This document shows positions 10,352 through 63,535 of a stretch of DNA of 64,000 nt, piece after piece. The stretch lies in assembly GCA_964600235.1 (NCBI GenBank), contig CAZRIV010000008.1:7683-71682 (forward strand), written 5' to 3'. This DNA comes from an uncultured Bacteriovoracaceae bacterium. GTDB taxonomy: Bacteria > Desulfobacterota > Desulfomonilia > UBA1062. The notes beneath the pieces were generated by a model. It worked only from the letters and a program-made list of their open reading frames with translations, was not told the origin of the DNA and did no database searches. Positions within the stretch are counted from its first letter, which is position 1, and each line of letters opens with the position of its first letter. A program made the translations under genes and the position numbers.

Positions 10352-10960
10352 TCAGTCGGATTCCATGGAGGTCTTCCATACCTCCCAGACCTTGCCCACG
10401 AGGTCGGGCCCGGGTTTGAGCGTGAGCTTGCCCGGTTTCCAGCCAGACGGCGTGGCCTCGGTGCCCTTGCTGTTCCGCACATACTGGAAGGCCTGGATCT
10501 GGCGGAACGTCTCGCTCACGTTCCTGCCCACCGGCGGGGTGAGCACCTCGTAGCCCTGGATGACACCGTCCGGGTCGATGAGGAACCTGCCGCGCATCTC
10601 CACGCCGGCGTCCGGGTCGTACACCCCGTATACGCTCCCCACCCGCCCTCCACCATCTGCGAGCATGGCAAAGGGCACTCCGCCCTTGACCATCTTTGAA
10701 AGCTCGTGGTCGTTCCACATCTTGTGCACGAACACGCTGTCAACGCTCATGGAGAAGACCTCCACCCCGAGCTTGACGAATTCAGGATATCTCTCGGCAA
10801 CTGCCGAGACCTCGGTGGCTCAGACAAAGGTGAAGTCACCCGGGTAGAAGCAGAGCACCACCCACTTGCCGAGATAGTCGGAAAGCTTCACCTGCACGAA
10901 CTTGCCCTTCAAATATGCCGGGGCAGTGAAATCAGGGGCCTTGCCCCCCACCTTGATCAT
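10352..10960 (-). CDS. Peroxiredoxin (AhpC/TSA family) with in-frame UGA (putative selenocysteine) at the peroxidatic-Cys position; UGA at 10820-10822
   Basis: The two listed ORFs (10820-11236 and 10352-10765) are in the same frame. Read-through gives ...[16 protein letters not shown][UGA][35 protein letters not shown]..., which aligns to AhpC ...FYPADFTFVCPTE..., so the UGA sits exactly on the Cp. Strong RBS (AAAGGAGG) 8 nt before ATG 10960 ([11 protein letters not shown]...). A SECIS-like hairpin lies 10 nt downstream of the UGA. The resolving Cys is replaced by Ser (TPSGWKPG vs VCPAKWKEG). Confidence 0.75.
10788..10812 (-). promoter_or_regulatory. Putative bacterial SECIS hairpin for the peroxiredoxin UGA
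   Basis: On the mRNA: UGA-GCCACCGAGG-UCUCGGC-AGUU-GCCGAGA. This is a perfect 7-bp stem starting 10 nt after the UGA, with a 4-nt apical loop containing GU. Confidence 0.45.
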
Positions 10961-11143
10961 AACCTTTGCCTCCTTTCGTGGACCCTCCTGTACGGGAGGT
11001 GCAGCCTCAGGTTCCCCGCCCACCGGCCCGCCTGTCGGCCTGGCGCACCCTGCCTTGATCTCTTCAGGCATAACGAACCTCCTTTCCTGTGCATCTCTGT
11101 ACATGAAACCGGCCCCCGTATGCTGAAAGGGACCTGTTTTATG

Positions 11144-11158
11144 ATTCAATACATGAAT
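11144..11158. promoter_or_regulatory. Inverted repeat ATTCA-N5-TGAAT in the prx promoter region (candidate PerR/Fur-family operator)
   Basis: Perfect 5+5 inverted repeat inside an AT-rich Fur-box-like context (TTATGATTCAATACATGAATAA), between the divergent prx and perR genes. Confidence 0.3.
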
Positions 11159-11229
11159 AAGTATAGCCCTTACATGCTCAAAGGCAATACCCGGAGCAAC
11201 GATAATTTGACTTATAAAGCAAGAATCTC

Positions 11230-11280
11230 TTGACATCCTGATAAGAAATAGTTAGATTTTTTAAATAATCATTCTTCATA
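11230..11280 (+). promoter_or_regulatory. Putative sigma-70 promoter of perR (TTGACA-17-TAGATT) with a Fur-box-like site AATAATCATTCTT immediately downstream
   Basis: Perfect -35 TTGACA at 11230-11235, a 17-nt spacer, then TAGATT at 11253-11258. AATAATCATTC at 11264-11276 resembles the Fur/PerR half-site ATAATCATTATC, consistent with autoregulation. Confidence 0.4.
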
Positions 11281-14916: not shown

Positions 14917-15008
14917 TGGAAGGGGCAAGGGGAATCGAACCTCCTCCCCGTGTGTTAGCCAGGGCTGACAGATTTGAAGTCCGCGGGGTGCCCAGCATAG
15001 TTGCCCCT
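14917..15008 (-). tRNA. selC: tRNA-Sec (selC), anticodon UCA, 92 nt including encoded CCA
   Basis: The minus-strand sequence AGGGGCAA...GCGGACTTCAAATCTGT...GGTTCGATTCC...TTGCCCCTTCCA has an anticodon loop CUUCAAA identical to E. coli selC. It has a 7-8 bp acceptor stem (AGGGGCAA/TTGCCCCT), a T-loop TTCGATT, a ~23-nt variable arm, discriminator U and CCA. It lies 76 nt upstream of the selB remnant. Confidence 0.75.
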
Positions 15009-15105
15009 GTTCTGTTCGCGGATAGAACGCTCTTACGGATTTTCTTCCAAACACTGATCTTGCTCCAGACAGCTGAAACGGTTGTCCTCTCGAGCCTGAT
15101 CATTA

Positions 15106-53699: not shown

Positions 53700-54176
53700 A
53701 TGCAGATCACATCCATGTTCGAACAGTGCAAGGCAGGTATCTTCTCGTACCTGATGCGCATGAGCGGAAACTACGATCTTTCCCAGGACATCCTCCAGGA
53801 GACCTTCACGCGCTGTATGGAGCATTACCCGAACGGCAACGCATCGGCATCGCTGCTGTTCACCATCGCGAGAAACGCCCTGGTGGACCACCGGAGAAGG
53901 CATAAACCCAATAGCCCGTTCGACGAGGAGGTGCACCATGCCCAGGGGGATACGGCCGAACAGAGCGTCCTCATCAAGGAGAGCTACATCAAGATGCTCG
54001 AGGCCTTGAAGACCTTGCCCTCAGACGAGCGGGAGATGCTCTCGCTTGCCGTGAGCAGCGAGCTGCCATACAAAGAGATCGCCACCATCATGAACCTGAC
54101 CGAGGCGAACGTGAAGGTGAAGATCCACCGGGCACGGCAGAAACTCAGAGAGATCATCCAAGGAGGTCGGCCATGA
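53700..54176 (+). CDS. ECF-subfamily RNA polymerase sigma-70 factor
   Basis: Region 2 (...DILQETFTR...) and region 4 HTH (...LPYKEIATIMNLTEANVKVKIHRARQKLRE). Confidence 0.9.
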   Translation: MQITSMFEQCKAGIFSYLMRMSGNYDLSQDILQETFTRCMEHYPNGNASASLLFTIARNALVDHRRRHKPNSPFDEEVHHAQGDTAEQSVLIKESYIKMLEALKTLPSDEREMLSLAVSSELPYKEIATIMNLTEANVKVKIHRARQKLREIIQGGRP

Positions 54177-54739
54177 AAGAAGAGCTGATCAGCATGTTCA
54201 TCGATGACGAGATGGACCTGGAAGAAAAAATCGAATTTGTGGAGCAGGTGCATGCGGATGTGTTTTTCAAGGACAGCACCATCGAGTTCCTGTACCTGGA
54301 GAAGGACCTCAGGGGCGATGTGGTCGAGCGGCTGCCTCAGGTAAGCGTACCTGCACGAAAAACCTCATGGATATTCTTCCGGCCCATGCATCTTGTCGCG
54401 GCTTCCCTGGCCGCTGCCGCAGCACTGCTTGTCTTTCTGTTCTGGCCGGTCCACCAGGAAGCAGCTAACCCCAGCGAGCCCTACCGGTTCGTGATCTACC
54501 GACCCGATGTATCCCGGGCCGCCATTGCCGGCGATTTCACCGGGTGGAAAGATGTTCCGCTGCAGCGTGTCGGATCGAGCGGTTACTGGGAGATATCGTT
54601 CAGCCTCCCCCGGGGGGAACACCGGTATGTCTTTGTCCTGGGCGGAGGAGAACGGGTCCCGGACCCCACGGTCATGACCCGGGAACCAGATGATTTCGGG
54701 GGAGAGAATACGATCATTGCAACAGGGGGTAATGCATGA
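54173..54739 (+). CDS. Anti-sigma factor (single TM) with periplasmic AMPK-beta/CBM48-like beta-sandwich domain
   Basis: ATGA overlap with the sigma gene, an acidic N-terminus, a TM (LVAASLAAAAALLVFLFW), and a C-terminal domain ...FTGWKDVPL...YVFVLGG.... Confidence 0.65.
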   Translation: MKEELISMFIDDEMDLEEKIEFVEQVHADVFFKDSTIEFLYLEKDLRGDVVERLPQVSVPARKTSWIFFRPMHLVAASLAAAAALLVFLFWPVHQEAANPSEPYRFVIYRPDVSRAAIAGDFTGWKDVPLQRVGSSGYWEISFSLPRGEHRYVFVLGGGERVPDPTVMTREPDDFGGENTIIATGGNA

Positions 54740-55062: not shown

Positions 55063-55116
55063 CCTGTGCCGCATCTATACGTTTCATATGGCAACTCAGC
55101 ACAAAAGGAGAACATC

Positions 55117-56187
55117 ATGAAAAAGGTAATCACGGCTCTGTTCTTACTGGCCTTCATGGCATCCGGCGCCCGTGCGGATTCCATCGATGACGCCCTGGGA
55201 ACGGACACATCGCCGCAGGTCAGAGAGAGCGTCAGGGAGATGGTACGGGCTGGCATCCATCAGGATGATGCCATTGGGATCACAAGGGCCATGGTCCTAA
55301 ACAGGTATCAGGAGCGCAACGTCCTGCAGGTGCACCAGTCCGTCCGGGAGGCCAGGCGTGCAGGTCTGCCGACCGAGCCTCTCATGAACAAACTCCGGGA
55401 AGGCATTGCAAAACAGGTACGCTCCGAGGCGGTGGCAAAGGCCGTGGATCAGGTGAGGGGCCGGTACGCGCATGCATACGGCAAGGCAAAGGGCCTTGCC
55501 TCTGTTGAAGGCAATCTGGCCCCGCTGGGCAACGCCATTGCCGAGGGCATGGCTGCCGGCATGGCCCCGGGTGATGTGGACGCAATCGCCCGGAAACTAA
55601 AGGACCACACACGGACCATGGACAGGGAGCAGGTTCACAAGCTCTCCATGGAGAGCTTCCTGACCGCCAGAGACATGACAAGGCAGGGCGTCGCTCCGGC
55701 GACGGGAACCGATGTCGTATGCCAGGCGCTGGAGAAGTCATGGCAGTACAGTGACATGGAAAGGCTGAGAAACTCGTTCATGACACAAGCCCGCCTGGAG
55801 AACCCTCAGGGGCTTGCCATGAGATACTCCAGGGCCATCAGGAACGGCTTCGATTCGAGCCGGATCGATTCGAAACAGGCCCGGGAGACATATGGCCAGG
55901 GTGCCCAGAGAGGACAGGGATCGCCGGGTGGAAAAGGCATGGGGTCTGGCGACGGTTCCACTTCAGGAGGTAAGGGCGGGGCGTCGGGTAACGGTGGGGG
56001 ATCGGGTTCTGGCGGAAGCGGTTCTTCAGGCAGTGGGGCTGGCTCAGGCGGGAGCGGATCTTCAGGAAGCGGCGGCTCATCCGGCAGTGGATCGGGGTCT
56101 GGTAGCGGGTCCGGGTCAGGTGGCGGTTCAGGCTCCGGCTCAGGCGGAAGCGGCGGTTCCGGATCGGGAGGACGAGGCGGCAAGTAA
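55117..56187 (+). CDS. Secreted protein with long C-terminal Gly/Ser low-complexity tail
   Basis: RBS AAAAGGAG, signal peptide MKKVITALFLLAFMASGARA, a helical domain, then ~100 aa of (G/S)n. Confidence 0.6.
   Translation: MKKVITALFLLAFMASGARADSIDDALGTDTSPQVRESVREMVRAGIHQDDAIGITRAMVLNRYQERNVLQVHQSVREARRAGLPTEPLMNKLREGIAKQVRSEAVAKAVDQVRGRYAHAYGKAKGLASVEGNLAPLGNAIAEGMAAGMAPGDVDAIARKLKDHTRTMDREQVHKLSMESFLTARDMTRQGVAPATGTDVVCQALEKSWQYSDMERLRNSFMTQARLENPQGLAMRYSRAIRNGFDSSRIDSKQARETYGQGAQRGQGSPGGKGMGSGDGSTSGGKGGASGNGGGSGSGGSGSSGSGAGSGGSGSSGSGGSSGSGSGSGSGSGSGGGSGSGSGGSGGSGSGGRGGK
55915..56185. repeat. GGN/AGC trinucleotide-rich low-complexity tract encoding the Gly/Ser tail
   Basis: Imperfect tandem repeats of ggc/ggt/agc/tcc. 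A candidate for slipped-strand length variation. Confidence 0.55.
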
Positions 56188-56345
56188 TGGGATATGGTAT
56201 AGTTGACTCTCCAAAGGACGTAACTATGGAGGCAAGTGATGAAGGTACGAAGGAGAGAGGACATTACAGGATTTATCACGGTCTTCTGTCTGACCATGCC
56301 ACATGTAACCTTCTAGCCATGAACAAGATAAAAGGAGGTACTGCC

Positions 56346-56501
56346 ATGAAGAAGTTGATCATAACGATGCTGTTTCTTGCACTGACAACAGGGGTTGTAA
56401 TCGCCGGAGGTGATCAGAACCAGGGAACAAGCGGTTCCGGGTCGACATCGACCGGTTCGACTTCGCAGGGCCAGGCATCTCAATCACGTTCAGGTCGATA
56501 A
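56346..56501 (+). CDS. Small secreted Gly/Ser/Thr-rich peptide (51 aa)
   Basis: Strong RBS AAAAGGAGG before ATG 56346. Signal peptide MKKLIITMLFLALTTGVVIA, then a GS-rich region. Confidence 0.4.
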   Translation: MKKLIITMLFLALTTGVVIAGGDQNQGTSGSGSTSTGSTSQGQASQSRSGR

Positions 56502-56788: not shown

Positions 56789-58027
56789 ATGAAGCATTGG
56801 CCCTTCCTTTTCATCCTGCCGGCCATGCTGTTCATTGCCGTCCCTGCAGATGCCCCTCGGGCGGATTCCAACTCCTGCGTTATCTGCCACACCGACGGTG
56901 CCAAGCTGAAGTCCCTGGTCATCCCGCCCAAGATCCACTCTGAGGGAGAGGGTTGAGCGGGTGCTCCTCCGCCGGTCCGGGCGGAAGACTACTACAAGGG
57001 TTACCTGGTGGACTCCTCTCTTCTGGAAAAGGACCCTCACCTCTCCAGGGGATGCCGCTCCTGCCACAAGGGAAATGCCGATGCCCAGGATAAGGACGAG
57101 GCGCATAAAGGCATGCTCAAGCGGCCCTCCGACGACCTCGCTACCTGTGGAGGCAAGTGCCATGGGAAGATCGCCGCAAACTATGCCAAATCTCTGCATT
57201 ACACATCCCTGGGCCAGAGGCAGGGGGTCATCCCCCGGTTCTCCAGGGCCGAGGTCAAGCTCTTCGACCAGAAGGTCTTCCAGCAGTCCTGCCGCAGCTG
57301 CCACGCCTCCTGCGGGTCCTGCCATGTGAAATCGCCCGCGGTATCGGGCATAAGCCTGGGTCTCATCAAGGGCCACAAGTTCATCAAGAAGGACGAGGGC
57401 AAGACCTGCGCCTTCTGCCACGGCGGCCGCGTATACCCCGAATACACCGGTGAGTACGGAGGGTCTACGGATATACACTACCAGAAGGGCATGATGTGCG
57501 TGGACTGCCACAAGAAGGTGGAGATGCACGGCGACGGCAGGAGATACCTGGGGAAGCAGGAAGTGAAAGACCGGCCGAAGTGCACGAACTGCCACAAGAC
57601 CATCAAGTCGGGCAAGCTCCGCGTACAGGTGGCCCACGATGCCCACAAGGGCAAGGTGAGCTGCTACGGCTGCCACGCCGCGGGCCAGTACCGGAACTGC
57701 TACACCTGCCACAAGGAGTCGACCTCGAAGCCCGGCTTCATCCTGGGGAAGAATCCGCGCAATCTAAAAGAGGTCACCACACTGAGGATCATCCCCACGG
57801 TACGCGACAGCTTCGCCCATGCAGGAATCAAGCAGGAGAACTACGACAGGCTTCCCAACTACTGGAATACCCCGGCACACACCATCAAAAAACGGACGGA
57901 CCGGACACGGTCTTGCGATATCTGTCATACGGAGAAGAAGGATTTCCTCACCCGGGAGACCCTTCTGAAGGACGGCTCCAAGGCCAATCAGGGACTGATC
58001 CATGTCCCGAAACCCATAACACACTAG
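56789..58027 (+). CDS. Periplasmic multiheme cytochrome c (~11 CxxCH) with in-frame UGA at 56954-56956 (candidate Sec/recoding site, or a disrupted gene)
   Basis: ATG 56789 encodes signal peptide MKHWPFLFILPAMLFIAVPADA plus a first heme motif CVICH. The sequence ...SEGEG-UGA-AGAPPPVRAEDYYKGYLVDSSLLEK... continues in the same frame into the 57008-58027 ORF, which itself lacks a signal peptide. Ten further CxxCH motifs follow. Confidence 0.55.
56968..56985 (+). promoter_or_regulatory. SECIS-like hairpin 11 nt downstream of the cytochrome UGA
   Basis: UCCGCC-GGUCCG-GGCGGA: a 6-bp GC-rich stem with a GGUC apical loop (compare the GGUC apex of E. coli fdhF SECIS) in the canonical window after the UGA. 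Confidence 0.3.
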
Positions 58028-58040
58028 ACAAGGAGGAAGT

Positions 58041-58937
58041 ATGAAACAGCTCAAAACATGTGCACTCATGATGGTGGTGTTCGCTCTCCTCATCCCGGCA
58101 GCCGTCATGGCCCGGGGAATAGATCCCATCGTCTCGACGGAATGGCTCGACAAGAACCTGGCAGACGCGAAGCTCGTGATCGTGGATATCCGCAAGGTGG
58201 AGGAGTACAACGCGGGACACATTCCCGGTGCGGTCAATGTCTTCTACAATGTCTGGGCACCAGGCAAGGGTGACATGCAGAACGAACTCCCGGCCGACGA
58301 TGACCTGAAGGATGCCCTGTCCGCCAACGGGATCGCAGCCGATTCCAAGGTGGTGGTGGTGGGTAAGACCGACACCCCGCCCGACAAGGTGAACGTCACA
58401 AGGGTAGCGCTCACGCTCCTCTATGCGGGCGTAAGCGATGTGGCTGTCTTGGACGGCGGGATGAACAAGTGGACCTCAGAGACCAAGAAGGTTTCCACGG
58501 ATGCGGTGAAGCCCAAGGCAAAGGACTACAAGGGAAAGTTCAACAAGGGCCTGTTCATCAAGAAGGAAGATGTTGCGGCCAAGATCGGCAAGGCGATCAT
58601 ACTGGATACCCGTGAGGCGCCTTTCTATAGCGGAGAGAAGAAGCTCGACTTCGTTGCCAAGCTCGGTCATGTCAAAGGTGCGGTGAACCTCCCCACCATG
58701 TCCCTGATCTTCAACGCGGACGGGACATACAAGGCAGCTGCCGACCTGATGGTCCTTGCGGCAAAGGCTGCGGGTGAGGACAAGGCAAAAGAGATCATCG
58801 TGTACTGCGATTCGGGCAGGGTGGCCTCGGCCTGGTGGTACCTATTAAAAGAAGTCCTGGGGTACAAGGACGTGAAGATCTACGACGGCTCCTTCCAGGA
58901 CTGGGCCAAGGATGCAAATCTGCCCGTAGAACCGTAA
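58041..58937 (+). CDS. Periplasmic tandem-rhodanese sulfurtransferase (Sud/thiosulfate-sulfurtransferase-like)
   Basis: Signal peptide, two rhodanese domains, and active-site Cys loop IVYCDSGRVAS in the second. Confidence 0.85.
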   Translation: MKQLKTCALMMVVFALLIPAAVMARGIDPIVSTEWLDKNLADAKLVIVDIRKVEEYNAGHIPGAVNVFYNVWAPGKGDMQNELPADDDLKDALSANGIAADSKVVVVGKTDTPPDKVNVTRVALTLLYAGVSDVAVLDGGMNKWTSETKKVSTDAVKPKAKDYKGKFNKGLFIKKEDVAAKIGKAIILDTREAPFYSGEKKLDFVAKLGHVKGAVNLPTMSLIFNADGTYKAAADLMVLAAKAAGEDKAKEIIVYCDSGRVASAWWYLLKEVLGYKDVKIYDGSFQDWAKDANLPVEP

Positions 58938-59007
58938 TGCACCAGCCGGGACGGGACAGGCACAGCCATGTCCCGTCCCGTGTACCATGGAAAGGATTGG
59001 GGAACGA

Positions 59008-60837
59008 ATGACTCGCTTGAAGGCCATACGTCTCATCTTCCTGGTCATGGCAGTAACTGTCGTGCTGCCGGCGGGCAGGTCCGACAGCGGCCAGCGGTCA
59101 TCCGCACACCAGGACATCTGGCTGCGCAACGAGACCGGCGATCGCATCACGCCGACGGACAACGCGGCAGAGCCCTACAGCCCGAGGAAGACCTGCGGGG
59201 CCTGTCACCACTACCCGACCATCGTGCAGGGCGACCACTTCCGCATGGGCTCCCCGGCAAAGAAGGCCGATCCTTCCCGGGCGAACCTCCCCCTGGAGCT
59301 TCTGCCGGGCGAAGGGCGACCCGCGCCCTACGGCGGTGCAGCGATCTATGACTGGATCGCCGCGAATGCCTCCTACCACCCGGGCGGCGGACCCATGGAG
59401 TGTCTCAACCTGCGTCCGGCCGGAGGAACACCGACGAACCTCGTAGAGGCGGAGCGCATCGTCTCCTCGTCCAGGAACCCCCATTTCCAGTCCCGCCTCA
59501 CCCCGGACGGCCACAGCCGCTTCAAGGCAAGCGGAGTCCTGGAAGGGGACTGCCTCATGTGCCACCTGAACGAGTACCGCCTTGAGCGGCGCAACGCCCA
59601 GATCGCCTCCCGGAACTACCGGTGGGCGGCCACGGCGGGCTCAGGCCTGGGCGAGGTGACCGGCCGGGTGTGGACCCCGGGCGAGGGCAAAGGCACCTGG
59701 GAATTCTCCCGCAGGCCGCTGGTGAAATACCACTGGAAGAACGGCATGTTCAAAACGGATGGCAGGCTTTCGGGACGCCTCATCCGCAAGGCGGTCTCTT
59801 CAAGCTCATGCCTGGCGTGCCACGGGACCACGCAGGCCCTCCGGACAGGGACCCTGTACCGCTCAGGCGATGATGCCCACATAAAAGCGGGCCTGCGGTG
59901 CGCAGACTGCCACACCTTGGCCGAGGCTGCACCTGGAGGCAGGCTCGGTCACCGCTTCGGCGGCTCGTCCGCATCCGGTGACTTCCGGCAGACCGGCATG
60001 AGGACCTGCGCCGACTGTCACCTGGCACAGGGGGGGCGTGCCCCCGACCCGACACTGACCCATGCGGACATGCTGCCCAATGCCACATTCCACCTGAGGC
60101 TGCTGGCCTGCACGGCCTGCCACGCCACGGCACAACCGGCAAAGGGGGCGTACCTGCTGGACCTCTCCACCGGCGCCGGACAACGGTTTACCGCACAGGG
60201 TCTTGAAGCACTCATCTCCCCGGCCGATGCCGCGAATCCCGCCCGGGAATCCTGGAGGCCCTGGCTCGCCATCTACGACCTCAAGGGATCACGCGGCCGG
60301 CGCTACGTGCCTGTTGCCCTGCACACGGCCCAGTGGTTCGGGGTGAAGGGACACAAAAACCGGATAACACCGTTGGAAGCCCCTGTGGTGGCCAATGCCT
60401 TCAGGCTCTGCACCGGCATCACCACTGCGGAGGTCAGGGACACCGCGGGGAGAAAACTCAGGATCCCCACCGTGGCCACCGAGGCCGACACGGCGAAGAT
60501 GCTTCACGCGCTGACACGCCTGGGCGTGAAGCAGGCGGTCTTCGTCTCGGACAAGGCCTATTCGCTCAAAGGCGGCAAGGTCGTGTCCTCGGAGCTGCCC
60601 TTGATCAACACCCTGAGCCTGCCGGTCTGGCACAACGTCCAGCCTGTGGCGAAAAGGCAGACCTATGGCGCCAAAGGCTGCACCGACTGCCACCAGGACA
60701 AGGCCCCCTTCTTTACGAAGATGAAGGTAAAATCCGTGGGGCGGTTCCTGAAGGACGACTACCCGGTGCCCAAGGCGCCCAATGCATCCCCCCAGATGCT
60801 GGACTGGGGTTACGAGGAAGTGCCGAGCCATGAATAG
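59008..60837 (+). CDS. Periplasmic multiheme cytochrome c (>=8 CxxCH)
   Basis: Signal peptide MTRLKAIRLIFLVMAVTVVLPA. Heme motifs CGACH, CLMCH, CLACH, CADCH (x2), CTACH and CTDCH. ~610 aa. Confidence 0.85.
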   Translation: MTRLKAIRLIFLVMAVTVVLPAGRSDSGQRSSAHQDIWLRNETGDRITPTDNAAEPYSPRKTCGACHHYPTIVQGDHFRMGSPAKKADPSRANLPLELLPGEGRPAPYGGAAIYDWIAANASYHPGGGPMECLNLRPAGGTPTNLVEAERIVSSSRNPHFQSRLTPDGHSRFKASGVLEGDCLMCHLNEYRLERRNAQIASRNYRWAATAGSGLGEVTGRVWTPGEGKGTWEFSRRPLVKYHWKNGMFKTDGRLSGRLIRKAVSSSSCLACHGTTQALRTGTLYRSGDDAHIKAGLRCADCHTLAEAAPGGRLGHRFGGSSASGDFRQTGMRTCADCHLAQGGRAPDPTLTHADMLPNATFHLRLLACTACHATAQPAKGAYLLDLSTGAGQRFTAQGLEALISPADAANPARESWRPWLAIYDLKGSRGRRYVPVALHTAQWFGVKGHKNRITPLEAPVVANAFRLCTGITTAEVRDTAGRKLRIPTVATEADTAKMLHALTRLGVKQAVFVSDKAYSLKGGKVVSSELPLINTLSLPVWHNVQPVAKRQTYGAKGCTDCHQDKAPFFTKMKVKSVGRFLKDDYPVPKAPNASPQMLDWGYEEVPSHE

Positions 60838-61573
60838 CTCATTACGCCCACTGCTGCTTGCGGGTCTTATCCTGCTGACCATTGCCTGGGCCCTCCCCGC
60901 CCCCCTCACGGCCGCCCAGAGCTGGAAGATGGTGAAGGCCGAGACGCTGGATTCCTGGCTGAAGACGGAGCAGCTCACGCTGGTGAACGTCATGAGCCGC
61001 ATCGAGTGCCTGGACCACCGCATCGCGGGTTCAGAGTGCATTGCCTGCGAGGAGTTCAAGGACAGGCTCTCCAGCATCCCCCGGGACAGGAAACTCGTGA
61101 TCTACTGCGAGAGCGAGGTGTGCACCCGCAGCTGCCTGGCCGCAGACGAGGCGACCAAGGCCGGTTTGAAGGACGTTTATGTGCTGGAAGGGGGCATGCC
61201 GGCATGGAAGGCCGCCGGGTTCACTCTGGAATCGGTGCAGCGCATCCCGCGCATGCCCGTTTCCTCGGTGAAGGCTACTGAGATCAAGACCTGGATGAAC
61301 CGCCACCCGGAGTTCATGGTGCTCGATATCCGCTCCCGGGAAAAATATGAAAAGGGTCACCTCGATGGCGCCATGAGCATCCCCCTGCACCAGCTGCACG
61401 AACGATACCAGGAAATCCCCCACGACAGGGCGCTGATGCTGGTGGACGACCAGGGCTTCCGCTCCTTCCTGGCTGCCAGCTACCTTGCCCGCAAGGGGTT
61501 CAAGGTCATGCGGCTCTTCGGGGGCATGGCGGCGTGGAAGACCTTCTCCGAAGGCAAGAGGCAGGTGAAATGA
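60830..61573 (+). CDS. Secreted tandem rhodanese-domain protein
   Basis: The ATG overlaps the upstream stop. Signal peptide, then two rhodanese folds with Cys loops (VIYCESEVC... and a C-terminal domain). Confidence 0.8.
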   Translation: MNSSLRPLLLAGLILLTIAWALPAPLTAAQSWKMVKAETLDSWLKTEQLTLVNVMSRIECLDHRIAGSECIACEEFKDRLSSIPRDRKLVIYCESEVCTRSCLAADEATKAGLKDVYVLEGGMPAWKAAGFTLESVQRIPRMPVSSVKATEIKTWMNRHPEFMVLDIRSREKYEKGHLDGAMSIPLHQLHERYQEIPHDRALMLVDDQGFRSFLAASYLARKGFKVMRLFGGMAAWKTFSEGKRQVK

Positions 61574-63417
61574 GGCGAAACCATCTCTCAGCGCGCTCCG
61601 TCATGGTCCTGGTGGCCTGGTGCCTGTCCCTGGCCCTGTGCGGCACCGTGGAGGCAAAGACCTGCCAGGACTGCCACTACGGCGCCATGTACACGAGCGG
61701 GTTTGCAGCCTCGGTGCACGCCAAGAACGGGTGCCTGAGCTGCCACAGCGACATAACGGACATGGATCTTCACATGAAGGGTCTGAAGAAGCCTTCCCCG
61801 GTGACCTGCGGGAAGTGCCACGCCGGGATCGCCCAGAAATACCGCAAGAACTTCCACTACCTCCAGGAGGACTTCCGTTGTGTGGACTGCCACAGCGACG
61901 TGCACACCCGCACTGCCCCCACCAGGGACATCAAGATCCGCACCATCGAGAAGTGCACCCAGTGCCACGGCAACGAGGAGTACGTCAACTCCGGCCACGC
62001 CGAGGCCGTGCTCAAGGGCAACCGTGACGCCGCTGCCTGCGGCGACTGCCACGGGCTGCACGACACCCGGGTCTTCCACACCTCCCTGTCGGCCTACCCA
62101 GAAGAGGCGCGCATGTTCTACAACGACAAGTGCATCTCCTGCCACGACGATTCGGCCATGATGAAGCGGAACAACCTCTCGGACAAGGTGGTGGAATACT
62201 ACGAGGAGACCTACCACGGCAAGGTCCAGGGCGTGGGGTTCGCCACGCTCGTGGCCGGATGCGCCGACTGCCACCAGACCCACAACATCCTGCCCAAGAC
62301 CGACCCGCGCTCTTCCATCCACCCGGACAACCTGGTGGAAAACTGTGGCCGCTGTCACAAGGGCTTCCACAAGCGCTTCGTGGACTACAAGGCCCACCCG
62401 GACTACCACGACCGGCACAACTACCCGGCCCTGTTCTGGACCTTCGTCTTCATGTCCGGACTCCTCATCTTCACCTTCGTCTTTTTCTGGACCCACACGT
62501 TACTCTGGTGGCGCAAGAGCTACTGGGAGCATCACGAGCAGGAAAAGAAGGGCGTCCTGCCAGAAGTCTGCACGACCGACACGGAGGGCTTCCAGCACGT
62601 CCAGCGCTTCAGCGTGATGGACCGGGCCATGCACGTGCTGCTCATCCTCTCCTTTTTCACGCTCGTTACCACCGGGTTCCCGCTCAAGTACCACAAGGCC
62701 CCCTGGGCCAAGTTCATCATGGGTATCTGGGGCGGAGCGCCCATGGCCGGTCTCTTCCACCGCATCGCGGCCGTGGTGCTCATGGTGCTCTTCGCGGTCG
62801 TGGCCGTGCGATGCCTGCTCTTCCTGTTCCCCCCGGGAATCGGGTTCAAGGGCTGGACGGACCGCCTCTTCAGCCCGGACTCCCTGTTCCCTAGGTGGAA
62901 GGACTGGGAGGACATCAAGGGCATGATCCGCTGGTTCTTCAACAAGGGAGAGAAGCCGCGGTTCGACCGGTGGTCCTACTGGGAGAAGTTCGACTTCTGG
63001 GCCGTGTTCTGGGGCATGTTCGCCATCGGCGGCTCCGGGGTGCTCCTGTGGAATCCCGAGATATCCTCGTATATCGTGCCCGGCTGGGTGCTGAACGTGG
63101 CCACGCTGATCCATTCCGAAGAGGCCCTCCTGGCGGCGCTCTTCATCTTCACGGTCCACTTCTTCAACACCCACTTCGTGCCCGAGAAGTTCCCCATGGA
63201 CCGGCTCATCTTCACGGGCACCTATTCCATTGACAACCTGAGGCGGGAGCGGCCCGAGGAGTATGAGCGGCTTGTTGCAGAGCAGAAAATAGAGAACCTC
63301 AAGCGCAGGCATCCGAGCATCCCGCTTAAGCTAGTATCGGCAGTCATCGGGCTTGCGAGCCTGCTGCTGGGACTGACACTCACCGTTCTGTTCATCTGGG
63401 TGATCGTGGGGCTGTGA
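61570..63417 (+). CDS. CbcL-like fusion: periplasmic nonaheme cytochrome c domain + FdnI/HydC-type diheme cytochrome b membrane domain
   Basis: Signal/anchor, then nine CxxCH (CQDCH...CGRCH). The C-terminal half has 4-5 TM helices with conserved His, typical of PF01292 b-type cytochromes. The ATG overlaps the upstream stop. Confidence 0.85.
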   Translation: MRRNHLSARSVMVLVAWCLSLALCGTVEAKTCQDCHYGAMYTSGFAASVHAKNGCLSCHSDITDMDLHMKGLKKPSPVTCGKCHAGIAQKYRKNFHYLQEDFRCVDCHSDVHTRTAPTRDIKIRTIEKCTQCHGNEEYVNSGHAEAVLKGNRDAAACGDCHGLHDTRVFHTSLSAYPEEARMFYNDKCISCHDDSAMMKRNNLSDKVVEYYEETYHGKVQGVGFATLVAGCADCHQTHNILPKTDPRSSIHPDNLVENCGRCHKGFHKRFVDYKAHPDYHDRHNYPALFWTFVFMSGLLIFTFVFFWTHTLLWWRKSYWEHHEQEKKGVLPEVCTTDTEGFQHVQRFSVMDRAMHVLLILSFFTLVTTGFPLKYHKAPWAKFIMGIWGGAPMAGLFHRIAAVVLMVLFAVVAVRCLLFLFPPGIGFKGWTDRLFSPDSLFPRWKDWEDIKGMIRWFFNKGEKPRFDRWSYWEKFDFWAVFWGMFAIGGSGVLLWNPEISSYIVPGWVLNVATLIHSEEALLAALFIFTVHFFNTHFVPEKFPMDRLIFTGTYSIDNLRRERPEEYERLVAEQKIENLKRRHPSIPLKLVSAVIGLASLLLGLTLTVLFIWVIVGL

Positions 63418-63457: not shown

Positions 63458-63535
63458 CCTGTACAAATAATGATGAAAACTGTCAGGAAAAGTCATATGA
63501 CTTTTCCTGACAGTTTTCATCATTATTTGTACAGG
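63458..63535. repeat. 78-bp perfect palindrome (39-bp arms, centred on CATATG)
   Basis: cctgtacaaataatgatgaaaactgtcaggaaaagtcat|atgacttttcctgacagttttcatcattatttgtacagg is an exact reverse complement. It lies between the convergent cytochrome and crp-like genes. Confidence 0.9.

Follow-up and report, generated by a model that had tools for sequence, protein, structure and literature searches.

A conserved in-frame UGA codon, probably read as selenocysteine, in a family of eleven-heme cytochromes c found mainly in Syntrophales and Smithellaceae

Among the closest described systems to the gene analysed here is MccSep/ExtKL of Geobacter sulfurreducens (GSU2937-2936; PDB 9wt8-9wtc; NCBIfam NF040886), a multiheme cytochrome c selenoprotein that has been demonstrated to reduce both polysulfide and selenite (Mihara et al., Sci Adv, August 2026; PMC13510729). 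Some members of the octaheme tetrathionate reductase (OTR) family, TIGR04315, are annotated as selenoproteins in GenBank (2026 review, PMC13188914). In Dethiobacter alkaliphilus, clusters of multiheme cytochrome and rhodanese genes have been proposed as non-canonical thiosulfate or sulfur reductases, and an Otr/SirA-like multiheme cytochrome encoded beside rhodanese-domain genes is up-regulated on thiosulfate (PMC10376724). Here we describe a cytochrome gene in a 64,000-nucleotide stretch of DNA, the whole of which is referred to below as the window.

Reading through an in-frame UGA yields an open reading frame at positions 56789-58027 (plus strand) for a predicted undecaheme cytochrome c selenoprotein of 412 residues including Sec56, which ends at a TAG stop (58025-58027). 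The sequence AAGGGAGA lies 5' of ATG 56789. Translation from this ATG bears out the layout given in the initial annotation, namely a signal peptide (MKHWPFLFILPAMLFIAVPADA; 56789-56854, judged from the translation by inspection) and a CVICH heme motif (residues 30-34; 56876-56890), followed by the TGA at 56954-56956 as codon 56 in the motif (E/G)G-U-AGAPPPV. The frame after the TGA is open as far as the TAG. The body 3' of the UGA contains ten further heme motifs, the number originally proposed, in the form of nine CxxCH and one CGGKCH (CX3CH), giving ten CxxCH and one CX3CH for the protein. This body has no hydrophobic N-terminus, also as proposed, and MKHWPFLFILPAMLFIAVPADA is the sole export signal. 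Together with the CxxCH motifs and the export signal, Pfam matches above gathering score (PF14522, 43.9 bits; PF22113, 38.6; PF14537, 31.3; Cytochrome_C7, MtrC/MtrF II/IV and Cytochrom_c3_2 domains) mark the protein as a multiheme cytochrome c. Its structure was approached through an AlphaFold model of a homologue with 70% identity (P0002) in place of the window protein; overall pLDDT was 82.9, with values below 50 at residues 50-61, so that the Sec loop is the unreliable part of the model.

The predicted protein resembles MccSep/ExtKL in being a periplasmic multiheme cytochrome c with selenocysteine outside any CxxCH, in having a UGA that splits the annotated gene and a SECIS-like hairpin, in belonging to a family with Cys as well as Sec members, and in the presence of a rhodanese gene nearby (ExtH in the case of MccSep). 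The expectation of the initial annotation that any role for selenocysteine outside CxxCH in a multiheme cytochrome would be new does not hold, given this precedent (PMC13510729). The two proteins are, however, built differently. MccSep has five hemes as opposed to eleven, and its Sec325 lies in a C-terminal Ig-like domain in the context D-G-U-P, whereas Sec56 lies in an N-terminal loop in the context G-U-A-G. The selenocysteine of MccSep pairs with the heme-ligating Cys239, whereas the window cytochrome has no cysteine outside its heme motifs and Sec56 would therefore be its only free chalcogen side chain. NF040886 does not match the window protein, and a profile of the window family gives MccSep (9wt8/9wt9) no more than 19.2 bits, all from a stretch of generic heme motifs. 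By its sequence, the window cytochrome belongs to a different family from MccSep/ExtKL.

The heme core shares its fold with OTR of Shewanella oneidensis (PDB 1sp3), which is its best, though distant, fold match. OTR has eight hemes against the eleven motifs of the window protein and lacks the equivalent of its first ~115 residues (heme 1, the Sec loop and heme 2), and TIGR04315 does not match the window protein at E <= 0.01. In a weak HMM alignment (12.6 bits), Lys56 and Cys64 of OTR stand opposite Ser152 and Asp160; Mowat et al. in 2004 reportedly found the active-site heme of OTR to be ligated by Lys56, with Cys64 nearby. The likeness to Dethiobacter alkaliphilus is one of gene arrangement, a multiheme cytochrome gene adjoining rhodanese-domain genes, and extends to nomenclature, as its cytochrome was once mis-named a thiosulfate sulfurtransferase in the same way as some JGI records of the window family; selenocysteine, however, is not reported there (PMC10376724).

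We examined the UGA codon in a set of 79 orthologues comprising 78 loci, one genome per GTDB species, and the window. The homologous codon is TGA in 78/79 and CGA in one, and is never TAA or TAG. The single exception, L061, is the sole close orthologue without TGA in the genome scan, and the 3' arm of its hairpin is mismatched. TGA is also kept in four distant clade representatives with less than 50% identity. Protein sequence is conserved on either side of the UGA in the orthologue alignments, the flanking EGEG-U-AGAPPP strongly so, and this conservation extends, as protein, through the 17 codons (AGAPPPVRAEDYYKGYL) that separate the UGA from the first start codon 3' of it. A UGA conserved among orthologues, with coding conserved on both sides, is a mark of a selenoprotein gene. 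Moreover, a hydrophobic N-terminus precedes the first CxxCH in all orthologues, motif 1 is kept as C..CHT, and the eleven heme motifs are intact in 74 of the 79.

Cysteine homologues at the Sec position, a further mark of selenoproteins, were found among distant full-length relatives, of which ten out of 29 have Cys at this column in the motif G-C-G-G-x-x-P (in the exact column in eight, and one column off in P0131 and P0133). Six close homologues have S, R, A, A, Y or R in place of Sec or Cys, and the residue must therefore be dispensable for the function of these six. Tryptophan residues in two 'full-length' homologues were considered as evidence against selenocysteine and discounted, the DNA being TGA translated with a Trp code. 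Genome-wide reassignment of UGA was likewise rejected because 12/79 of the orthologous genes use TGA as their terminator. Sense codons in the orthologues with an unconserved hairpin, the outcome that the initial annotation had set against recoding, were not the pattern seen: alignment at this position gave TGA in 78/79 and Cys in ten distant relatives, and the hairpin is kept.

This hairpin, proposed to lie 11 nt after the UGA, was found by folding at 56968-56985 (plus strand), with a 5' arm UCCGCC (56968-56973), a loop GGUCCG (56974-56979) and a 3' arm GGCGGA (56980-56985), beyond a spacer of 11 nt (56957-56967). Taken by itself, the window hairpin does not exceed shuffled GC-rich sequence in stability (z = +0.84 for 66 nt and z = -1.0 for 37 nt), and only comparison with orthologues gives it significance. 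In the 5' arm, entropy at the third codon position is 0.24 for Pro60 and 0.49 for Pro61, lower than at any other of the 52 conserved fourfold-degenerate codons of the gene, where it ranges from 0.89 to 1.96. At +26 a G is present in 78/78 sequences, whichever of R, K, T, S, P or Q is encoded. Within the stem 93.8% of cells are paired, as compared with at most 62.6% when the partner is slid, and compensatory changes occur in two pairs, G-C to U-A in L001 and C-G to G-C in L039, L045 and L065. RNAalifold recovered part of the stem from the 78 close orthologues, with a covariation term of only -0.09; because the stem is so conserved, there are few independent compensatory events among close orthologues. 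The distant clades represented by L084-L087 have hairpins of unrelated sequence 9-10 nt past the UGA with GU in each loop, such that a hairpin with GU in the loop lies 9-11 nt past the UGA in all clades. On the question raised by the initial annotation of whether the hairpin is conserved, the frozen synonymous sites of the stem, the compensatory changes and the distant-clade hairpins agree in indicating a downstream stem-loop conserved in structure, as in selenoprotein genes. This putative SECIS has features in common with bacterial SECIS elements of the fdhF type (E. coli consensus) and with the SECIS of a peroxiredoxin gene in the window: the distance from the UGA (~10-11 nt), a stem that is rich in GC and 6-8 bp long, and G-U in the apical loop. 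It differs in that the stem is short (6 bp) with no bulged U evident.

The peroxiredoxin gene in question, prxU (10352-11236, minus strand), confirms the Sec-type peroxiredoxin of the initial annotation. Its in-frame TGA at 10820-10822 (...DFTFV-U-ATEV...) splits the match to NCBIfam NF040737 at profile position 81, with 98.7 bits upstream and 290.9 bits downstream, and a hairpin, UCUCGGC-AGUU-GCCGAGA, lies 10 nt after the UGA. PrxU is a second Sec gene of this genome and provides an internal control for SECIS geometry. The tRNA-Sec gene also reported for the window stands in part. A candidate selC at 14920-15009 (minus strand), with anticodon loop CUUCAAA, a long variable arm and T-loop GGUUCGAUUCC, is a full-length match to Rfam RF01852, but at 36.4 bits it falls short of the gathering score of 47 (E-values of 0.0015 for the whole window and 4e-6 for a local search) and is visible only in a permissive Rfam search; ARAGORN called no tRNA in the window, and Rfam gave no match there at its gathering threshold. 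The ORFs beside this candidate were considered as selA or selB and rejected, as their products are instead a double-cubane reductase, a radical-SAM protein and a NifS-like desulfurase. No selA, selB or selD was found among the ORFs scanned, which were part of the ORFs of the window.

Judged from sequence comparison, 56789-58027 is one intact gene for a periplasmic cytochrome c with eleven heme motifs, with a conserved UGA at codon 56 and a hairpin 9-11 nt downstream. The competing view of the initial annotation was that of a recently disrupted gene, to which may be added a TGA arising from sequencing or assembly error, the downstream part in either case making nothing functional. This would account for a single in-frame stop that splits the ORF and for the separate shorter protein that gene callers and public annotation give for the downstream part. 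Yet 78 of the 79 sequences, assembled independently of one another, share this TGA, as do four distant clades, protein sequence and heme motifs are conserved on either side of it, and the synonymous constraint coincides exactly with the hairpin; the comparative data refute disruption, and we consider it next to impossible. Recoding could alternatively proceed without selenocysteine, through near-cognate read-through (Trp, Cys or Arg) stimulated by the hairpin, or the UGA could end a 55-residue monoheme peptide, with the body translated from GTG 57008. The failure to see selA, selB or selD among the scanned ORFs and the tolerance of close homologues for S, R, A or Y would fit such a scheme, which is nonetheless very improbable: UGA is the only stop codon ever found at this position, the hairpin shares its spacing and GU loop with the PrxU SECIS, and distant relatives have Cys, the usual counterpart of Sec. 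Attachment of c-type heme is periplasmic, and initiation at GTG 57008 is at odds both with the conservation of the AGAPPPVRAEDYYKGYL codons as protein and with the lack of a signal peptide on the body. Taken whole, the data are best explained, very probably correctly, by the internal UGA of the cytochrome gene being a selenocysteine codon. The selenocysteine-containing multiheme cytochrome of the initial annotation, produced by UGA recoding with a SECIS hairpin, is thus supported by the near-invariant TGA, the constraint on the stem and the Cys column. We infer with high confidence that decoding follows the standard bacterial route, in which SelB, bound to this hairpin, brings Sec-tRNA(Sec) to the UGA, so that translation proceeds past the codon and yields the complete precursor of 412 residues, which leaves the cytoplasm by the Sec pathway and receives its hemes in the periplasm.

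The cytochrome gene is usually found in the company of rhodanese and cytochrome genes. In the window it is followed on the plus strand by genes for a periplasmic tandem-rhodanese protein (58041-58937), with a signal peptide, two Pfam Rhodanese domains (132 bits) and a CDSGRV active-site loop in the second domain; a 616 aa heptaheme c-type cytochrome (58987-60837; downstream on the same strand in 43 loci); a second rhodanese-domain protein with the loop YCESEVC (60782-61573; same strand in 36 loci), the true start of which is likely ATG 60830; and a nonaheme c-type cytochrome fused to a membrane cytochrome b of Ni_hydr_CYTB/FdnI type (61534-63417; same strand in 35 loci). The heptaheme cytochrome is probably an electron relay, and electrons from quinol probably enter the module at the nonaheme-cytochrome b fusion, which may resemble CbcL of Geobacter. 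Of the 74 loci with enough sequence, 58 have a rhodanese gene immediately 3' of the cytochrome gene, as do the more distant members L082, L084-L086 and L089; about nine TGA loci lack any rhodanese gene within 6 kb. The directly adjacent rhodanese was lost in L061, L090 and L091, which are the three readable loci with a residue other than Sec or Cys, giving an apparent co-loss that in raw counts amounts to retention in 0/3 non-chalcogen forms versus ~63/73 Sec forms. This loss suggests changed function rather than neutrality in these three. Matches within the module to NCBIfam ExtH and ExtM of the selenite/tellurite operon are weak and below cut-offs, and no outer-membrane porin or extracellular cytochrome gene was found in the conserved neighbour set.

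We further infer that the protein may work in the periplasm to reduce sulfane-sulfur compounds with electrons from quinol, Sec56 being its catalytic chalcogen. Synteny, the distant fold match and analogy suggest, tentatively, that it could well serve as the terminal reductase of a five-gene respiratory module. In such a pathway, the nonaheme-cytochrome b fusion would oxidise menaquinol and hand the electrons on, by way of the heptaheme cytochrome, to the undecaheme selenoprotein with its OTR-like core. Sec56 would attack an S-S bond or Se-containing substrate, which may be polysulfide, thiosulfate, tetrathionate or a persulfide on the adjacent periplasmic rhodanese, and the heme chain would then reduce the resulting Se-S adduct, following the same logic as Geobacter MccSep.

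Other roles for the residue and the module were weighed against this proposal. Selenocysteine might be inserted mainly for regulation, making synthesis selenium-dependent, with a residue that has no chemical role; the chemically unrelated residues in six close homologues and the faint similarity of the module to selenite/tellurite-reduction clusters are compatible with this. A chemical role is argued, however, from the Cys kept in a conserved G-C-G-G context in many distant relatives, and the strongly conserved flank of the UGA and the lost adjacent rhodanese in the three non-Sec, non-Cys loci likewise make a purely regulatory role most unlikely. A less remote, though still unlikely, alternative is that the module serves extracellular or metal acceptors (iron, electrodes or syntrophic partners) or selenite/tellurite detoxification instead of sulfur respiration, with the Sec cytochrome as a relay or a selenite reductase. 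The similarity to MtrC/MtrF domains in Pfam, the weak ExtH/ExtM similarity and the additional activity of MccSep on selenite point in this direction, and we know of no sulfur respiration in Syntrophales. Against it, the conserved set is devoid of porin and extracellular cytochrome genes, the best fold match is a tetrathionate reductase, and rhodaneses are carriers of sulfur and selenium.

A further possibility concerns heme ligation. The family has only nine conserved non-motif His residues as compared with eleven heme motifs, and Sec56 (Cys in distant relatives) might, although we think this doubtful, act as distal axial ligand to one of the pair of hemes that have no conserved His. Selenocysteine would then dissociate from the iron and take over sulfane sulfur from the adjacent rhodanese. 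If true, this would be a natural c-type heme with His/selenolate ligation, with selenium in the place that sulfur takes in the His/Cys hemes of TsdA, SoxAX, DsrJ and MccSep; to our knowledge, selenocysteine has until now served as a heme ligand only in engineered proteins.

A scan of 185,579 species genomes detected 438 relatives, with 1,084 cluster representatives at E <= 0.001, and the sequences with TGA found here are mainly from Syntrophales, Smithellaceae and Syntrophaceae. Carriers of the gene include the complete genomes OY762510.1 (Syntrophus sp.), OY970063.1, OY820932.1 (Smithellaceae) and CAXXVL010000002.1, as well as MAG DYLD01000103.1 of Syntrophus aciditrophicus, and one truncated record, SAMN04489760_11552, comes from Syntrophus gentianae. 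This conserved-UGA family, usually encoded beside a rhodanese gene, is obscured in public databases, where almost all of its closest members are recorded only as N-terminally truncated proteins named 'cytochrome c3 family' or 'hypothetical'. About 110 of the best 120 database matches are annotated as proteins of 305-357 aa starting just past the UGA, and a few records have Trp translated at the Sec site or, among some JGI records, a sulfurtransferase name. If our reading is right, this family of multiheme cytochrome selenoenzymes is common, and an annotation model would correct hundreds of records.

If the selenocysteine assignment is true, the window cytochrome would represent a second family of multiheme cytochrome selenoenzymes, of independent evolutionary origin, larger than MccSep and built differently. 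The combination of selenium and heme chemistry for reduction of S-S or Se bonds would then be a recurring solution rather than a one-off, and since Sec56 is the only free chalcogen, this protein would offer a clean system for studying the effect of selenium beside heme. Syntrophales and Smithellaceae are known as obligate syntrophs. These organisms would gain a conserved quinol-linked periplasmic reductase module with rhodaneses, which hints at an ability to respire polysulfide, thiosulfate or selenium compounds or to detoxify them.

The eleven-heme cytochrome c gene (56789-58027, plus strand; 412 residues including Sec56) is preceded by AAGGGAGA, and its product starts at ATG 56789 with MKHWPFLFILPAMLFIAVPADA, judged by inspection to be a signal peptide, followed by a CVICH heme motif (residues 30-34) and an in-frame TGA at codon 56 (56954-56956). 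The reading frame past this TGA stays open to TAG 58025-58027 and encodes ten further heme motifs (nine CxxCH and one CGGKCH), with neither a hydrophobic N-terminus nor a cysteine beyond the heme motifs in this part of the window protein. After 11 nt comes a hairpin formed by UCCGCC (56968-56973), a GGUCCG loop and GGCGGA (56980-56985). The layout is thus as the initial annotation described it, including a post-UGA part without its own signal peptide and a hairpin at this spacing. The third heme motif, CGGKCH (CX3CH; 57146-57163, residues 120-125), is the same in the closest relative, database protein P0001, and looks like a one-residue insertion within a heme-binding motif; in 74 of 79 orthologues all eleven motifs are of the plain CxxCH form.

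A recently disrupted gene had been put forward as the competing explanation for this arrangement. The closest public records of the family are shortened or mistranslated: among the best 120 of 546 relatives from a protein search, inspected for extent across the UGA site, approximately 110 are called as proteins of 305-357 residues starting just past the UGA position and 8 read through it. Other public records are shortened to ~345 aa, and some bear the JGI name 'thiosulfate/3-mercaptopyruvate sulfurtransferase'. The homologous codon was read from in-frame DNA upstream of each locus match in a genome scan (one genome per GTDB species; 438 relatives, 80 loci kept, nearly all from Syntrophales, Smithellaceae, Syntrophaceae and Syntrophorhabdaceae, with one from Geobacteraceae). 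This codon is TGA in 78 of 79 sequences, the window counted in, and TAA or TAG in none of the 79; the sole exception is CGA in locus L061. Across orthologues the codon context is ...(E/G)EG-TGA-GCN GGN GCN CCU CCG CCN GUN (CGG/AAG) GCG GAA. Such conservation of TGA, never replaced by TAA or TAG, rules out a pseudogene or a sequencing error and overturns the suggestion of recent disruption. Two database proteins, P0002 and P0115, show Trp at the site, where the contig DNA has TGA. These are public metagenome gene calls (P0002, L081 51-1313; P0115, L082 162-1385) whose products disagree with the table-11 translation, the TGA = Trp table evidently having been chosen for these short contigs. The orthologous genes themselves end in TAG (43), TAA (24) or TGA (12), so UGA is still a terminator in the carrier organisms and a reassigned code is ruled out.

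Taken alone, the window hairpin is no better than chance for GC-rich RNA (z = +0.84 over 66 nt and -1.0 over 37 nt), and the argument from a single sequence is therefore weak. Comparison of the 78 TGA sequences is more informative. Third positions of the first three codons past the UGA are free to vary (entropy 1.37, 1.95 and 1.54), whereas those of the two Pro codons of the 5' arm are almost fixed (0.24 and 0.49) and are the least variable among 52 conserved fourfold-degenerate codons, the rest ranging from 0.89 to 1.96. The stem-closing position +26 is G in 78/78, though the codon specifies R, K, T, S, P or Q. When the alignment is scored against the imposed structure, pairs form in 93.8% of cells; sliding the 3' partner by 1-3 columns lowers this to 62.6% at most. 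Compensatory changes occur in two of the six stem pairs: L001 has U-A for G-C, and L039, L045 and L065 have G-C for C-G, the latter changing both amino acids. RNAalifold alone recovered part of the stem only, with a covariation term of almost nil, since the element varies too little among these close orthologues. In L061, with CGA for TGA, the 3' arm contains a mismatch. Stronger evidence than the close-orthologue alignment comes from the predicted hairpins of distant clades. L084-L087, each representing a cluster below 50% identity, all carry TGA at this site (contexts EGEG-U-A, EGEG-U-GG, EGTG-U-GG and KGGC-U-GG), followed after 9-10 nt by hairpins of unrelated sequence with stems of 7-8 bp and loops of AGUUA, GUU, GUU and GUC. 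One of these distant members, L087 (451-2328), has Cys before Sec (GGC-U-GG, a C-U dipeptide), and has a CarboxypepD_reg-like domain of ~240 residues fused to the portion that precedes the UGA.

A profile of full-length homologues had 1,084 matches at E <= 0.001 in a representative library of 1.84 billion proteins. Of the distant relatives spanning the UGA site (n = 29; 25-37% identity), 10 have Cys at the aligned Sec column (P0131 and P0133 one column off) within the motif G-C-G-G-x-x-P, which, judged from the alignment, is the relationship usually seen between Sec and Cys forms. The window also holds the Sec-type peroxiredoxin reported by the initial annotation: a PrxU-type selenoprotein gene (10352-11236, minus strand) whose TGA (10820-10822) splits the NCBIfam NF040737 match exactly at profile position 81 and is followed after 10 nt by the hairpin UCUCGGC-AGUU-GCCGAGA. 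The reported tRNA-Sec gene is less certain. The candidate (14920-15009, minus strand) has anticodon UCA, a CUUCAAA anticodon loop and a full-length match to Rfam RF01852, at 36.4 bits against a gathering score of 47; its D-arm region fits the model poorly and ARAGORN did not call it. No selA, selB or selD was found among the window ORFs scanned, and the neighbours of the candidate are a double-cubane reductase, a radical-SAM protein and a NifS-like desulfurase rather than selA or selB. The UGA, the hairpin, the Cys homologues and PrxU in the same window together support the proposal of a selenocysteine-containing multiheme cytochrome, with selenocysteine by far the most probable reading of the UGA.

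Multiheme cytochrome selenoproteins are an already known kind, within which this is a different family. A 2026 review gives three families of cytochrome-type selenoprotein, namely ExtKL, the GSU2204 family and the OTR family (PMC13188914). The window cytochrome has only generic multiheme Pfam matches and reached the cut-off of no NCBIfam release 20 model; the models for ExtKL (NF040886), the GSU2204 family (NF041027) and the OTR family (TIGR04315) gave no hit at all. Against the PDB, the family profile scored higher with GSU1996 (46.6 bits), Shewanella oneidensis octaheme tetrathionate reductase (OTR; 36.0 bits) and MccA (35.9 bits) than with the Geobacter sulfurreducens selenoprotein MccSep (9wt8-9wtc), which scored 19.2 bits over a generic heme stretch only. 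MccSep, a polysulfide and selenite reductase, has five hemes, one with His/Cys ligation, and bears Sec325 in an Ig-like domain at its C-terminus (PMC13510729). The present family differs from the known selenoproteins in heme number, fold relatives and the position and context of Sec, and lacks a partner cysteine. In the HMM alignment OTR starts at approximately residue 115 of the window cytochrome, so that the part before it, with heme 1, the Sec loop and heme 2, is an N-terminal extension. In this weak alignment, Ser152 and Asp160 are the counterparts of OTR Lys56 and Cys64. The 11 heme motifs are accompanied by only 9 conserved non-motif histidines across the family. In the libraries available the family is neither described nor modelled, and may be noted in work beyond their reach.

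The cytochrome is the first gene of a cluster. Next come a periplasmic tandem rhodanese (rhodanese 1; 58041-58937) and a heptaheme cytochrome (58987-60837), then another rhodanese (60782-61573) and a fusion of a nonaheme cytochrome with a membrane cytochrome b (61534-63417). Among the 74 loci with at least 600 nt of downstream sequence, 58 have rhodanese 1 immediately downstream, and approximately five more loci have it upstream; each of the last three genes recurs in 35-43 loci. Conservation does not extend to the genes upstream of the cytochrome in the loci compared. A rhodanese also lies directly downstream in the distant TGA forms L082, L084, L085 and L086 and the Cys form L089, and approximately nine TGA loci have no rhodanese within 6 kb. 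The close homologues without Sec or Cys, L061 (Arg), L090 (Ser) and L091 (Tyr), all lack an adjoining rhodanese gene; these three cases, counted without regard to kinship, are suggestive, and the chalcogen residue and its presumed partner rhodanese may have been lost together. A distant relative, P0141 (L083 3001-7040), has a genuine Trp at the Sec column and is adjoined by NrfC-like (4Fe-4S) and NrfD-like genes in place of the rhodanese. The quinol-coupling module appears to be interchangeable within the wider family.

Upstream of the cluster, an ECF-type sigma factor gene (53700-54176) is followed by another ORF (54173-54739); neither this ORF nor those immediately before the cytochrome (55066-56501) have a family match, and the ORFs at 53700-54739 and 55066-56501 have a homologue in none of the related loci. 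A 78-nt inverted repeat (CCCTGTACAAATAATGATGAAAACTGTCAGGAAAAGTCATATGAC...; 63458-63535), perfect by appearance and centred on CATATG, lies 40 nt past the last cytochrome operon gene, with a T-run after it. Several miRNA-precursor models match it, equally on either strand; it may represent a terminator hairpin of unusual length, or a palindrome of the mobile-element or REP-like kind.

The comparisons show a single gene whose UGA, hairpin and synteny are conserved and which has Cys-bearing homologues. We infer with high confidence that insertion of Sec56 is SelB/SECIS-dependent, which would allow the whole precursor to be translated, exported and matured in the periplasm. Sec56 is the sole chalcogen side chain beyond the heme motifs of the window cytochrome. 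Its attack on the substrate, or on a rhodanese-bound persulfide, would give an adduct to be reduced in turn through the heme chain, a mechanism also proposed for MccSep. In Dethiobacter, Otr/SirA-like cytochromes adjoining rhodaneses have been linked with thiosulfate respiration (PMC10376724). Tentatively, and with slightly less than even confidence, the module may be a periplasmic reductase that draws electrons from quinol to reduce sulfane-sulfur or selenium compounds.
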